Source: Saccostrea echinata (Eukaryota). From it: DNA of 64,000 nt. The notes beneath the pieces are model-generated. The model made no database searches and had not been told where the DNA came from. It saw only the letters and a program-made list of their open reading frames with translations. Of this stretch, positions 31,020-46,975 are shown one piece after another. The first letter of the stretch is position 1, and each line of letters opens with the position of its first letter. The translations under genes and the position numbers were made by a program. The stretch is taken from assembly GCF_033153115.1 (NCBI RefSeq), contig NW_026889779.1, positions 35,960,001 to 36,024,000 on the forward strand, read 5' to 3'.

Positions 31020-32107
31020 ATGAGAACCTCTATGCTTATTCAATCTTCCACCATTCTTGGCACATTCCTGTCATCAACAGGACGTGCAATGCATATAGAC
31101 ATGTATGAGTAAGTAAATGAAAGTTTATTCGTTAATTTTATAAATTAATTAAGAAAATAACGTCAAATTATTTGTTGCATTGCAAAAAGAGCGTCCATAG
31201 CAACGCGTTTTGTGTTTTTTGCAGGTTGGGATGTGATGTGTGGCAGTTAAGTAAGGAGATGAGTGCCACCCTAGGGGTAGGTTATTGAATGTTTATTTGT
31301 TTTGTATACTGACAATAAGTCTCTCACATCTCTGGTACTTTCTAACTCTTCCTTTCCCTTCTCTTAGCATGAGCTGCTGTCGCTCGGTGAGAGAGTCAAC
31401 AGCTTTGCCACAACCACTTCTGCTGCTGCTCTGTCTTTCTTCTCGGCAACAGATCTGCTCTTCTTTCTGGCTTTTCTGCTCTTAGTTACTTCTGTTGTTG
31501 GTTCTGTTCAGTTTGTTCAACAGTTCAACACTGCAATGAAAGACCTGAAAAGCAAAATGGCAGGTCTAGCAGAAGGTTAATATTGTTATAAAATTTACTT
31601 CGTGTTTTATCTTGTATTTGGTGCTAATATCCTCACCACAAGTGGACGAATTGGTTAATTTGTTTACTGATATTTTCAGAGAATGTGCAGATGAGGCTGG
31701 TTTTGAATGCTTTGCTGAACGATGCAGACGAGACAGAGAAGGCATTAGGTTAGTATAACTTTCGCCAAATCTCAATGTGCAAATTGAATTTCCCGTTTCA
31801 TGAGCTTAAAAGTTATGGGTGGAAATTTATCTTAAATCAGTCTTCATTTTACTAAAGTTACTTATATTTCAATCTAGCAATGAAATTGAACGCCTTAGCC
31901 GAGGAGCAGAAAAACTTGGCCGGGTGGTTGAATTTTCACACAGAGATGTTCAGAATCAGGTACCATTAATTTACTCCGAAGTATTTTGATTTCATGTCTT
32001 AATGGGTATTAAAAAAATACAAAATTATTTATATTTTACGATTTGATTTCAGACTGGACTACTTAAGCCACGGCACACCCAAGGTTCAGAGCAAAAGAAA
32101 AAGATGA
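31020..32107 (+). CDS. Uncharacterised 184-aa single-pass membrane protein with C-terminal coiled coil, copy A
   Basis: Exons 31020-31108, 31225-31276, 31368-31575, 31680-31748, 31878-31959, 32053-32107 join in frame (555 nt) across five ~90-130-nt GT-AG introns. TATA box upstream and AATAAA at 32163. TM segment LLFFLAFLLLVTSVVGSVQFV at ~aa 77-97. Confidence 0.82.
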
Positions 32108-32406
32108 AGCTACTGACGTTGCATCAGCTTATTTTTTCCTTATGTAACAGTCAAATATGTTTAATAAATTATTGTTGCCTGAAACTTCATTTGAATGTTT
32201 CTTTATTCTGCTGAAGATGTGAAGTGAACTACAGATTACTGAACATGGAATTCATTACATATATACATAGTTAAATACAAAACGTACTGGTCCCATTTTT
32301 AGTAAAGGGAGCTGTCCCTATTTCAACGTATTCTAACAATGTGTTTTGTACACTAATGTTACGAACAGTAATGTTTCGATTAAATCATTGAATATAAATT
32401 TACAGG

Positions 32407-32650
32407 CAGGCCCGTAGCAACGGTTTCAAAATTGGGGGGGGGGGGCTTCCCAAAAAATCTGACCAAAAAAAAACCAACCTAATTTACTGTCCAAATCCTG
32501 GAATTTGCCAGTCCTCGACCTTACAACAAGTTGGGGGTGGGGGGGGGGGGGGGCAACATCTAAAGAAAAATTTACTATAGCAAAATTTACTATAGCAAAA
32601 TACTATACTCAGAAAAAAAGTGCCCCCTTCCCCCGCGTTCTACGGACCTG
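32407..32650. mobile_element. Poly-G/C MITE with CAGG..CCTG ends and 5-bp TSD
   Basis: CAGGCCCGTAG / CTACGGACCTG; TSD ACAGG. Confidence 0.75.
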
Positions 32651-32775
32651 ACAGGTGCTAGTATTTTTCATTTAATTTTCCACTGAACTTATGGTTACAC
32701 ATGATCAGCGATTTGAAATGAATGGTCGGTGCTTAGCTTCACTAGATAATATTGAATCAAAATTAAAACTCTTAA

Positions 32776-33629
32776 GGGCCGGTACACACGATAACGCTTG
32801 CCTTGTAAGTCATGGAACTTAAGTTCTTGCCTTACCGTGTGTACACCCTTAATACACGGTTTTTCGAGCCTTACAAGTCTGAATAGAGCACTGCTCTATT
32901 TCTTAAGGTCAGATGATACGTTCCTCGAATATCTGTTTTGCAAATCTTCGTAATGTATAAAAAATATTCAAAATTTTAACTACCATCTGATTTCTTAGCA
33001 GGTTTCTTATTGTCTTGAAATAATCGAAACACAAAAAGTGGGATATTGGCAAATAAATTTTTTCCCAAAAGGATTATATAGGTAACACTTTCCTCTGGTA
33101 TCTTGCACAAAAGCCTGGTAACTGGTAAGGTACCTTAATTTTTTGCGAGTAAACATGTTAAAGTAGCAATACTTCAATGACAAAATCTTGGAAAAAATTA
33201 TATATTAATGAGGAACGTATCGTCTGTCCTTAATACAAGACTTAGCTGAAATTTTCTTCTCAACCAATGAAAATCATTCGCCCAAATGTCATTCTATTTT
33301 TATCAAACCATACACGTGGGTATATTGAAGTGAACACAAAGTATTTTCGAATAAGCTAATGAAAATACCCACAAATGCTTCTGTTCAACCTCTTCCTCTT
33401 TTTTAAAGAAGTGTGAATGTACTTGTTGGTATAATTATTATGAAGTCTGATAATCTATTCTTCTATTTTAATGACCGAATGCACGATTTATGGCTGGAAA
33501 CACGTGGGATTTACGGAAATGTATATAATCTCGTAAATCTTGCCTTAACGTGTGAACACGAGAGCCGCACATCCTGCAAAACGTAAGGTTTTAGACTTAT
33601 AAGGCAAGTCTTACCGTGTGTACCGGCCC
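32776..33629. mobile_element. TTAA-targeting MITE (Kolobok-like) specific to copy A
   Basis: TIRs GGGCCGGTACACACG; flanks TTAA/TTAG; empty TTAA site in copy B at ~47950. Confidence 0.85.
32907..33229. mobile_element. Second TTAA-targeting MITE nested in 32776-33629
   Basis: TIRs GGTCAGATGATACGTTCCTC / GAGGAACGTATCGTCTGTCC; TTAA on both sides. Confidence 0.82.
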
Positions 33630-44043: not shown

Positions 44044-44282
44044 GGCCATCTTTAAAATAATGTCTGTTTGCCCTCTCCCGATCTAGGGTATAAAAAAAAT
44101 GGGTCAGTAGGTAAGTGGGAAAATATTTCCCTGAAAATTTCAATATCAATGCCGAATTTTCAAAATGTATTGAAATAATTTTTTAAAAAATATATCGTTT
44201 CCTGGAGGTTAACAAGTTTTGAGTCGAGCCATTTTTAGCCAGTGGCGGTAGAGGGAAAATAAACAATTTTTTAAAGATGGCC
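44044..44282. mobile_element. Zator-like MITE
   Basis: GGCCATCTTTAAAA / TTTTAAAGATGGCC TIRs; TTA TSD. Confidence 0.75.
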
Positions 44283-44780
44283 TTAGTTATTTTTTTTTCA
44301 CCTAGATCCTGAGTTGTCGTTACTGAGATTATGGACTCGTGCAAATAGTACCAAATATAATCATCAAAACAATAGGTCTGCTGTGGTCTTGTGTATGACA
44401 TAGTTAGTCCTATTTGAGTATCAACTTACTTATAATTAATATTCTTACTTCGAATAAAAAATAGAATCAGACACCAACTTAGCTACCTTTGAATTATTCC
44501 GCCAAATGCACTACTTTATGATGTCGTAATGGCGGCTTTAACACATTGACCAATGTCGTTTGTTTGGAATTTTATTAATACCACTTGGATTAATGTACGC
44601 ACTGTTGTAAGGGAAAGGTAGGAGTAGAAAAATAGTTTAACTTTTTATTAGTTTGAATTTCACTAAGGTCCAAATTCATAGGATTTTACCAGCCTCAATG
44701 AATGTTTGCATGCCGTGGCAATATTTGACAAAATTGATAGGCCTATAGGCTCGAATTTGTATCCAATGCAAAATGTTAAT

Positions 44781-44898
44781 CATAGGGACCTGAGGCAATC
44801 TTAGCAAAATCGGGTATATAGTATAATAGGGGAATCCCCTAATAATCGCCTATTATACTATATACCCGATTTTGCTAAGATTGTCTCATGTCCCTGTG
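44781..44898. mobile_element. 118-bp hairpin MITE (P- or hAT-like) specific to copy B
   Basis: ~50-bp near-perfect inverted arms CATAGGGACCTGAGGCAATCTTAGCAAAATCGGGTATATAGTATAATAGG; 8-bp TSD ATGTTAAT. Confidence 0.85.
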
Positions 44899-45883
44899 AT
44901 GTTAATTTATTGAGACCGATTTAAAGCAATATCTGCATTGGAATCACAGGAAATGTGTGATTTTCTAGCCGCCGAAAATGAAGAACGATTTTGTTTTATG
45001 GAGCTCTTTTTATAGAGCTCTTGTTAATTTTAAATAATGATTCAGGTTCTTTTCAAAAAGTTCATCTTACTACAATATCCTTGTCAAAACAACACGAGAC
45101 AATTTACCGGAAGAATATCGTTGTCATGGCGTCTTAGTAACGTCATTGTAAACAAAAGAAGATGAAAAAAAATTAACACGGATTTTTACATAAATACTTT
45201 CAATGTCGTGTTTAGATGTACAAATTTTAACTCCCCGTGTTAATACAAAGTTTTTAGATTAGGAATGATTTTCAAAAAGTGATCTTTTGCTTACTGAAAT
45301 TTAACATCAAATTCGACATATTCCGTGTTTTTTCCATGGAACAGCAATATGGAATTTTTCAAAGCAATTAAAAACGGAATGTTTAAAATGTTTGTAAAAA
45401 AGGATTCTCTTAGTTGTATTTGATAAATTTATGTCAAAAGTTAGGTAGAAATTTGTAAGGCTTACACATGAAAAATTCTTAAACATAACGGGGAGCTCTC
45501 TTGAGCGACTTCAGACATAGTTTTATGAAATTCTATAGGCAAAGACATGATGTTTGAATAGTTTCCCACTATATTCTTAGAGAAGATTTATAGATGGTTC
45601 CAACAAACGCATTCATACATGATGCTATAGTGAGAACTTCGCATAATTGATAAAACACTGTAGATCATAAAGCACAAAACCGAACCCCATCTTGTTTTTT
45701 TGACGTGAGTACAACGTTTTGGCGCTCTTCGCTCATTGGACAACCCACTTCTTGGAAACCAATCAGCACGAGCAAAATACAGCCAATCAACGGCATGCAT
45801 ATTCCCCGGAAAGTATATAAGCACGAGATTTTCAGGACTTGGCATCATTTGCAATCGACGCATTGTCAAAGCAAGACGCAAAA

Positions 45884-46975
45884 ATGAGAACCTCTATGCT
45901 TATTCAATCTTCCACCCTTCTTGGCACATTTCTGTCATCAACAGGACGTGCAATGCATATAGACATGTATGAGTAAGTAAATGAAAGTTTATTTGTCAAT
46001 TGTATAAATAAATGTAGTAAATAACGTCAAATTATTTCAATATTGCAAGAAAAGCGTCCATAGCAACACATTTTGCGTTTTTTTGCAGGTTGGGATGTGA
46101 TGTGTGGCAGTTAAGTAAGGAGATGAGTACCACCCTAGGGGTAGGTTATTGAATGTTTATTTGTTTTGTGTACTGACAATAAGTCTCTCACATCTCTGGT
46201 ACTTTCTAACTCTTCCTTTCCCTTCTCTTAGCATGAGCTGCTGTCGCTCGGTGAGAGAGTCAACAGCTTTGCCACAACCACTTCTGCTGCTGCTCTGTCT
46301 TTCTTCTCGGCAACAGATCTGCTCTTCTTTCTGGCTTTTCTGCTCTTAGTTACTTCTGTTGTTGGTTCTGTTCAGTTTGTTCGACAGTTCAACACTGCAA
46401 TGAAAGACCTGAAAAGCAAAATGGCAGGTCTAGCAGAAGGTTAATGTTGTTATAAAATTTACTTCGTGTTTTATCTTTGCTACTTATATCCTCACCACAA
46501 GTGGACGAATTGCTTATTAATAATTTGTTTACTAATATTTTCAGAGAATGTGCAGATGAGGCTGGTTTTGAATGCTTTGCTGAACGATGCAGACGAGACA
46601 GAGAAGGCATTAGGTTAGTATAACTTTCGCCAAATCTGAATGAAAATGCAAATTGAATTTAACGTTTCATGAGCTTAAAAGTTATGGGTGGAGATTTACC
46701 TTAAATCAGTCATCATTTTACTAAAGTTACTTATATTTCAATCTAGCAATGAAATTGGACGACTTAGTCGAAGAGCAGAAAAACTTGGCCGGATGGTTGA
46801 ATTTTCACACAGAGATGTTCAGCATCAGGTACCATTATTTTACTCTCAAGTATTTTGATTTTATGTGTTACTGGGCATTAAAAAATACAAAATTGTTTAT
46901 ATTTTACGATCTGTTTTCAGACTGGACTACTTAAGCCACGTCACACCCAAGGTTCAGAGCAGAAGAAAAAGATGA
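45884..46975 (+). CDS. Uncharacterised 184-aa single-pass membrane/coiled-coil protein, copy B
   Basis: Exons 45884-45972, 46089-46140, 46232-46439, 46545-46613, 46747-46828, 46921-46975. Exon lengths and splice sites match copy A, the frame is open, and indels fall only in non-coding DNA. Confidence 0.82.

Follow-up and report, generated by a model that had tools for sequence, protein, structure and literature searches.

A rock-oyster orphan gene for a predicted single-pass coiled-coil protein, with a frequently skipped cassette exon that encodes the predicted membrane anchor

INTRODUCTION

Tetherin/BST2, a protein in which a transmembrane (TM) helix is followed by a coiled coil, has cysteines and N-glycosylation sites in its ectodomain. 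Mitochondrial inner-membrane proteins sorted by stop-transfer are usually single-copy and widely conserved, and coiled coils of the GCN4 type form parallel dimers with leucine at the d positions of the heptad and asparagine at an a position. At the RNA level, exon skipping may serve as an unproductive-splicing switch, as in the control of PTBP2 exon 10 by PTBP1. Here we analyse a gene present as two copies, A and B, in a stretch of 64,000 nt (the window) from the rock oyster Saccostrea echinata (assembly GCF_033153115.1, contig NW_026889779.1, positions 35,960,001 to 36,024,000 of the forward strand; coordinates below are those of the window). It is an apparently lineage-restricted gene for a predicted single-pass coiled-coil protein, with a cassette exon of the unproductive-splicing type, and it invites comparison with all of these systems.

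RESULTS AND DISCUSSION

Gene structure and transcripts

Copy A (31020–32107) and copy B (45884–46975), both on the plus strand, each consist of six exons separated by GT..AG introns of 91–133 nt, a common size in oysters (90–130 nt), and each contains an open frame of 184 codons. The exon boundaries of both copies were set from joints in RNA contigs. The two copies differ at 12 of 555 nt and in 9 residues. An earlier note, made from the sequence without database searches, had proposed that six short exons splice in frame in both copies; indeed, the protein of copy A is identical, letter for letter, to the one claimed. The uniformly tiny introns stressed there are given no weight, such sizes being common in oysters. 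The same note had described the gene as hidden, which is wrong, since RefSeq has exactly both proteins: copy A equals LOC133196784 (XP_061188627.1) and copy B equals LOC133196785 (XP_061188628.1), letter for letter, each named only 'uncharacterized protein' without isoform suffix. A genuine spliced rock-oyster gene is thereby confirmed, uncharacterised yet not hidden. Neither the form lacking exon 3, described below, nor the haplotype duplication of the locus is evident from these two records.

In copy A, the coding part of exon 1 (31020–31108; residues 1–30, its junction present in RNA contigs) is followed by exon 2 (31225–31276; 52 nt, placed by RNA joints and frame), the 208-nt cassette exon 3 (31368–31575; joints of inclusion and of skipping), exon 4 (31680–31748; placed by the frame of translation), exon 5 (31878–31959; the second coiled-coil segment, with a WLNFHT motif) and exon 6 (32053–32189; the basic tail, with the stop at 32107). 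Exon 3 codes for the TM helix and the first half of the leucine zipper. In copy B, coding exons 1–3 (45884–45972, 46089–46140 and 46232–46439) and 4–6 (46545–46613, 46747–46828 and 46921–46975) follow from the frame, which gives LOC133196785, and an AATAAA motif is found in the sequence at 47023.

Five public runs contained 22–34% of the sampled words, and RNA contigs of four of these, representing at most three samples from two studies, were placed on the gene. A sixth run (X6), which contained next to none of the words, was not used and speaks neither for nor against. Such contigs drop rare variants, and their depth is a poor measure of expression; strand and tissues are not given, and the counts come from contigs. 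The contigs cover the exons and almost nothing of the introns. All five junctions predicted in the earlier note are present: junctions 1 and 4 in all four runs, junctions 3 and 5 in three each, and junction 2 as a listed joint in two, with loose ends in the other two. The poly(A) signal proposed there was also found, as AATAAA at 32163, with poly(A) beginning in the contigs at 32184–32189, about 20 nt downstream. Because the joints lack introns, poly(A) is present and the genome holds no intron-less copy, the runs can safely be read as RNA. In runs X1 and X2, exons 4 and 5 are separated by five other letters in a joint at 31748–31883, and exons 1 and 2 by six in another joint; these are probably paralog or allele differences.

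Skipping of exon 3

Two further paralogs, C and D, lie elsewhere in the genome. What is new here is the skipping of exon 3, with the entire TM helix: each of the four runs contains a joint from exon 2 to exon 4, and such joints occur in three paralog types (A/B, C and D). The A/B-type joint is at 31275–31679. In the C-type contig, 11 inserted letters correspond to the start of exon 4 of paralog C. In the D-type contig, all 22 substitutions that were checked agree with paralog D (28 are listed, six beside indels being left out), and exon 5 lies at record position 383, the place predicted for a transcript lacking exon 3, rather than at 591, as predicted with it. A genomic copy devoid of exon 3 was considered as the source of the skipped form and rejected, all six loci in the genome having the exon; other individuals might carry such a copy, but three paralog types skip.

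By summed contig depth, in which joints and pieces are mixed, the share of exon-3 inclusion was 0.31, 0.32, 0.28 and 0.26 in the four runs, the skipped forms making up about 70%. What can safely be said is that exon 3 is skipped no less often than it is included. The inclusion of exon 3 assumed in the earlier note was thus observed, while the frequent skipping had been missed. This majority skipping of the anchor exon, conserved among paralogs, is the one unexpected feature of the gene.

Two features may bear on the choice of exon 3. Its donor, GTTAAT (31576–31581), is non-consensus and identical in paralogs A, B, C and D. Its acceptor follows a branch point (CTAAC) and a C/U-rich tract (31338–31367, in intron 2) that in copy A is 93% pyrimidine and 41% C, as against 63% and 4–19% for the other four acceptors; the C-rich acceptor recurs in all four paralogs (C fraction 0.30–0.48 versus 0.00–0.19 elsewhere).

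Skipping shifts the frame, so that in all four paralogs translation ends after 51 codons, at a stop 156 nt downstream of the start and 136 nt upstream of the last junction. The premature stop is therefore more than 50 nt upstream of the last junction, as in switches that couple alternative splicing to nonsense-mediated mRNA decay (NMD). The skipped form nonetheless carries most of the contig depth, which, weak measure though it is, argues against strong decay. PMC12776119 describes mammalian NMD-inactive zones at about 22–100 codons after the start, and start-proximal escape of this kind would, on these mammalian data, account for the persistence of the skipped form. A literature search for exon skipping with NMD in oysters returned reports on other animals only.

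Alternatively, the main products of the gene might come from the skipped mRNA itself, namely a 51-aa peptide and, where ribosomes re-initiate at an overlapping AUGA, a soluble coiled-coil fragment of 64 aa that would pair with the full-length zipper and damp it. The abundance of the skipped forms in the contigs would suit this idea, as would the position of their stop: in copy A, the TGA at 31692–31694 overlaps the ATG of Met121 at 31691–31693, the overlap recurs in all four paralogs, and Met121–Arg122 is invariant in the 12 homologs introduced below while most other d positions are leucine. However, any ATG-AGR pair gives such an overlap, which may accordingly be no more than a consequence of protein conservation. 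Moreover, no part of the protein is more conserved than that encoded by exon 3, and in the genes studied in PMC12776119 re-initiation does not explain start-proximal escape. We therefore regard products of the skipped mRNA as unlikely to be the main ones. It is still less likely, though tempting to speculate, that a coiled-coil inner-membrane family born in Saccostrea brought its own regulator, the majority, skipped mRNA evading decay and re-initiating at the AUGA to yield a soluble half-zipper that inhibits the anchored form; if so, one cassette exon would determine how much active membrane protein is made relative to its inhibitor.

Some other coding and non-coding possibilities at the locus were also considered. 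In exons 4–6 of copy A (31680–32220) a second frame is open for about 100 codons. Its use was rejected, as it would need exons 2 and 3 both to be skipped; a joint suggestive of this is discounted because it represents the divergent D-type exon 2, and no transcript entering the frame was present among the RNA contigs of the four runs. An upstream open reading frame (ORF) ending on the main ATG is present in A/B and not conserved in C or D. An Rfam scan of 30000–33000 yielded nothing, and no known snoRNA was found in the short introns.

The encoded protein and its placement in the membrane

Residue counts were made over all 12 Saccostrea homologs. The first 26 residues, which in copy A are Ser/Thr/Arg-rich and presequence-like, lack Asp and Glu in all 12, contain 2–4 Lys/Arg and 7–10 Ser/Thr, and include an invariant Arg22 and His25; their best 9-residue hydropathy is 1.3–1.8 and their 18-residue hydrophobic moment 0.36–0.46. 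The central TM helix of the earlier note is borne out at about residues 76–97, after an N-terminal part of 75 aa. Its strong window (76–94) has a 19-residue hydropathy (KD19) of 2.3–2.6 and no proline in any of the 12 sequences, and the 15 residues preceding it form the most conserved block (92%). A charged cluster follows, residues 98–113 having a net charge of +1 to +4, with Asp106 in 11 of 12 and Glu117 in all. The net charge is −1 before the helix and +1 to +4 after it throughout the 12 sequences.

The coiled coil, put at about 55 aa in the earlier note, does have heptads; its length is closer to 68 aa (97–164), divided between two registers, 97–128 and, after a break, 139–164. The heptad positions Val97, Phe100, Leu107, Met111, Leu114, Asn118, Met121, Leu139, Leu146, Leu153 and Leu157 are invariant in the 12 homologs, most d positions being leucine and Asn118 occupying an a position. 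The C-terminal tail is basic, as proposed, and variable (40% identity). The absence of a glycosylphosphatidylinositol (GPI) signal also stands, there being no C-terminal hydrophobic segment (best 9-residue hydropathy of the last 25 aa, 0.29–0.96). Cysteine is absent after the TM helix in 10 of 12 sequences, and N-glycosylation sequons occur in 5 of 12, at differing places. The layout makes a role as membrane tether or adaptor plausible.

Our preferred reading, which we hold tentatively and put at somewhat below an even chance, is that a presequence and stop-transfer sort the protein to the mitochondrial inner membrane, its zipper lying in the intermembrane space, and that exon 3 acts as an on/off switch. 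Residues 1–26 would be a presequence that is cleaved off. Import would be arrested by the hydrophobic, proline-free helix (76–97) and the charged cluster after it, leaving residues 27–75 in the matrix and placing the zipper (97–164) and basic tail in the intermembrane space. There, the invariant leucines at d and Asn118 at a would make a parallel two-stranded coiled coil, serving as scaffold or adaptor for partners. Inclusion of exon 3 might be set by a pyrimidine-tract-binding repressor together with the weak donor. The skipped mRNA would persist, its stop being start-proximal (156 nt), and would yield no anchored protein, so that an anchored zipper would be made only upon inclusion. In support, the acid-free, Ser/Thr-rich N-terminus fits the description of presequences, as amphipathic segments free of acidic residues and rich in hydroxylated and basic ones, in PMC11452304. 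Likewise, the proline-free helix with a charged cluster after it fits the determinants of arrest, a hydrophobic proline-free TM segment and then a charged cluster, given in PMC2171449.

Several points weigh against this reading. PMC11452304 stresses negative residues after the TM segment for stop-transfer, and here residues 98–113 are net positive. In copies A and B the first 26 residues include no more than two basic ones, and their hydrophobic moment (0.36) is the lowest found. Acid-free first 26 residues arose in 6.5% of shuffles; with the Lys/Arg and Ser/Thr criteria added the figure is 0.08%, but these criteria were picked after seeing the sequence. The 12 sequences are close relatives and hence not independent, mitochondrial targeting was judged on composition and hydropathy, and the AlphaFold model, which consists of long helices only, is of low confidence (pLDDT 46, pTM 0.24). 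As to the switch, the lower synonymous divergence of exon 3 is just a trend (9 of 59 versus 18 of 60 codons, p 0.08; p 0.22 at fourfold sites), and inclusion, being much alike in the four runs, as yet shows no sign of regulation, with the caveats on contig depth, tissue and strand stated above.

The charge distribution brings in the main rival, which we consider a distinct possibility, although a less probable one: a single-pass protein of the secretory pathway, of type III or, given a weak signal peptide, of type I, under the same exon-3 switch. A short N-terminal part would be luminal, and the leucine zipper and basic tail would be cytosolic, acting as adaptor or tether. By the positive-inside rule the positively charged flank of a TM helix faces the cytosol, and the charges on either side of the helix, consistent in all 12 sequences, would put the zipper there. 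The helix is also very hydrophobic, and residues 11–17 are mildly so, followed by small residues that might form a cleavage site. Nevertheless, the N-terminal hydrophobic stretch is weak (KD9 1.3–1.8) and Ser/Thr-rich, and a Ser/Thr-rich N-terminus with the invariant Arg22-x-x-His25 resembles a presequence more than a signal peptide.

Relatives

The family appears to be restricted to Saccostrea. A search with the exon-3 peptide, made against longer proteins, gave seven clusters among 210 candidates, all seven from Saccostrea, and 12 homologs were collected in total, six from S. echinata and six from S. cucullata, all named 'uncharacterized'. A profile of seven sequences run against proteins of near lengths recovered the same seven out of 4166 and no further relatives; a profile of 12 sequences found none among 7998 proteins of 329–2000 aa, which is weak evidence. 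A full HMMER pass over 1.84 billion representatives, made with the 69-aa exon-3 peptide only, returned a single match, which belongs to the family. Searches with the full-length profile all passed through a word filter and may miss remote homologs. The proteomes of Crassostrea, Magallana and Ostrea are presumably part of the searched collection, to judge from its NCBI and UniRef sources.

The earlier claim that no family is recognisable was upheld, the sequence searches giving no confident match to a characterised family. None of seven sequences exceeded the curated cut-off in Pfam and none of 12 in NCBIfam, where one match reached E 0.009. The PDB sequence search gave no family and three matches at the level of coiled coils (E 0.06–0.24). 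The weak Pfam and PDB matches, to YabA, HAP1_N and the TRAF7 coil, lie on the coiled coil only and are all below cut-off. In the ESM Atlas the best score, 0.80, was inside the range of shuffled sequences, with no usable named match. Foldseek with the AlphaFold model returned no match, which is meaningless at such a pLDDT, and a homodimer prediction for residues 66–172 scored 0.01 with the alignment not used, so that it is not evidence either way. Among viral and metagenome contigs, 93 and 588 pattern matches were obtained, none of them confirmed. The literature search revealed no paper naming any of the six LOC identifiers. In the supplementary file of PMC12564202, an S. echinata transcriptome study, neither the LOC identifiers nor two short motifs were found; that study used its own assembly, and its tables may list the gene under different identifiers.

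Copies, haplotypes and selection

Self-comparison of the window revealed a tandem duplication of which unit 1 (28348–33838, plus) and unit 2 (44323–48138, plus) share five blocks at 83–94% identity, interrupted by insertions; the gene block is 93.9% identical over 1895 nt. A remnant of 65 bp (48735–48799, plus), comprising a 5′ leader that ends at the ATG and is 94% identical, is preceded by a (GA)n run and occurs in the other haplotype too; it is likely a relic of a third tandem copy. In unit 1, a MITE-like insertion with terminal inverted repeats was observed at about 32775–33630 relative to unit 2.

The genome contains six matches to the gene. The full window (1–64000) is collinear, in reverse orientation, with a region of contig C54 (G000:C54:27241882-27317188) at about 95–99.8% identity with large indels, and the two regions are most likely uncollapsed haplotypes. 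With the C54 region as the second haplotype, the six matches represent four paralogs: A and B in the window, C at 26.73 Mb of C54 and D at 13.19 Mb of C47. RefSeq gene counts are thus inflated here, the region being counted twice. For the flanks of C and D, a search for a second haplotype, in which 40 candidates were scored, recovered nothing but repeats and the locus itself. Just downstream of gene A, an 8.8-kb insertion is present in the other haplotype alone (G000:C54 ~27279828–27288597, corresponding to window ~32300). It starts with TG, ends with CA and contains gag-like (625-codon) and pol-like (1306-codon) open frames; by its structure it is a polymorphic long terminal repeat retrotransposon.

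Divergent paralogs are under purifying selection. Over codons 1–170, dN/dS was 0.21–0.30 for pairs with D and 0.37–0.48 for A/B versus C, and the deficit of nonsynonymous changes was significant by Fisher's test for A–D (p 6e-7), C–D (p 8e-9) and A–C (p 0.04). For A versus B, with few changes, dN/dS was 0.40–0.68 and the deficit not significant (p 0.70). The deficits relative to C and D indicate that the frame is real and constrained.

The neighbourhoods of the paralogs bear on two further explanations. Copies A/B are located after LSM14 and TAF4, and D lies between sulfotransferase genes and a Deltex/RING/macro-domain gene; C and D resemble A/B only over the gene and about 770 bp upstream. 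Around C (G000:C54 ~26729000–26739000), 166-bp satellite arrays lie on both sides in opposite orientation. Three unrelated neighbourhoods in which introns and upstream DNA were retained, together with the satellites flanking C, might hint that the gene is cargo of a mobile element or an accessory gene of a virus, spread by transposition. The similarity among A/B, C and D stops at the gene, though, with no shared termini or transposase within 50–80 kb; there are only four paralogs, and viral and metagenome contigs contain no confirmed relative. We consider this the least probable of the explanations.

Multiple copies and lineage restriction are also frequent in immune genes, and D is only about 8 kb from the Deltex/RING/macro-domain gene. 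A type II surface protein of the tetherin/TMCC(aT) kind, antiviral and with its coiled coil outside the cell, would have the same domain order and a similar size, and GPI-less TMCC(aT) proteins, some of them antiviral, are described in PMC10617486. This explanation is nevertheless improbable: the oyster family has no GPI-type C-terminus, no conserved cysteine after the TM helix, no conserved sequons and a charge bias against type II topology, its dN/dS below 0.5 gives no sign of positive selection at the level of the gene, and there is no sequence match.

Promoter

The region upstream of copy A (30806–31019, plus) is conserved across paralogs A–D. It contains a CRE-like TGACGT (30837), an E2F-like TTTGGCGC (30854), CCAAT boxes at 30871 (reverse), 30895 and 30919, a TATA box at 30950 and an initiator (Inr)-like element at 30981, 31 nt after the TATA. 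The motifs are kept among the paralogs, except that the E2F-like site is altered in C. In copy B (45670–45883, plus) the CRE-like motif is at 45701, the CCAAT boxes at 45735, 45759 and 45783, the TATA at 45814 and the Inr-like element at 45845. The TATA/Inr promoter claimed in the earlier note thus exists as a set of motifs conserved in four paralogs. It may mark the start site, but RNA contigs also cover 30847–30960, upstream of both elements, at substantial depth; a D-type contig over 30847–30962 had a depth of 36 versus 89 downstream in X1 and 89 versus 226 in X2. Since contigs show neither start nor strand, transcription may start near 30840, upstream of the Inr, or antisense transcription may occur.

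Neighbouring genes and repeats

The region had been described as saturated with transposable elements. Transposons are present, but they are not the sole content, as the window also harbours TAF4 (1–5805, minus) and, head to head with it, LSM14 (~11700–26000, plus), and a ZP-domain gene at its end (63365–64000, plus). Exons of a gene without Pfam match lie at 53047–56833 (plus). An intact ORF of 286 codons (50232–51089, minus), very hydrophobic, multi-TM-like and without Pfam match, is single-copy and identical in both haplotypes; it has no similarity to the gene studied here. Palindromic 23-bp minisatellite arrays in inverted arrangement occupy 40269–42055.

Significance

Lineage-restricted orphans combining a TM helix and a coiled coil are common and the gene model is already public, so that the bare observation is ordinary. 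What is added is a compact family, expressed, under selection and so far confined to one genus, in which the promoter is conserved and the cassette exon that carries the predicted anchor shifts the frame when skipped. It offers a test case, in an aquaculture genus, of how genes of recent origin come to be targeted to an organelle and controlled by a splicing switch.

Comparison with known systems

Tetherin/BST2, TMCC(aT)/CCDC194 and PLVAP resemble the oyster protein in having a TM helix followed by a coiled coil in fewer than 200 aa, and tetherin ends in a GPI signal (PMC10617486) where the oyster protein has a basic tail. The likeness to tetherin/BST2 drawn in the earlier note does not hold beyond this layout. 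The TM helix of tetherin is N-terminal, after the short cytoplasmic tail of a type II protein, whereas that of the oyster protein is central, behind 75 residues and with the opposite charge bias, the topology being judged from charges only. The ectodomain cysteines and glycosylation sites of tetherin contrast with a family in which 10 of 12 members lack cysteine after the helix, and neither Pfam nor PDB indicates homology.

With mitochondrial stop-transfer proteins of N-in orientation and a coiled coil in the intermembrane space, the oyster protein shares the proline-free hydrophobic helix and, as it appears, a presequence-like N-terminus and a charged cluster after the helix. It has sequence homology to none of them, copies A and B have few basic residues, the cluster is net positive, and the family is multi-copy and genus-restricted instead of single-copy and widely conserved.

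The zipper, for which a GCN4-like parallel dimer is the best guess from the heptad pattern, is like GCN4-type zippers in its leucines at d, hydrophobic a positions and one buried asparagine (Asn118) next to a glutamate. It differs in being, as predicted, membrane-anchored and in having no basic DNA-binding region before the zipper.

Finally, exon 3 shares with switches of the PTBP2 exon 10 type a length that is not a multiple of three, a CU-rich acceptor and a weak donor, and its skipped form has, like theirs, a premature stop lying more than 50 nt ahead of the last junction. Unlike in those switches, the skipped form is abundant rather than depleted and its stop is start-proximal, and every paralog type of what is an orphan family has retained the arrangement.

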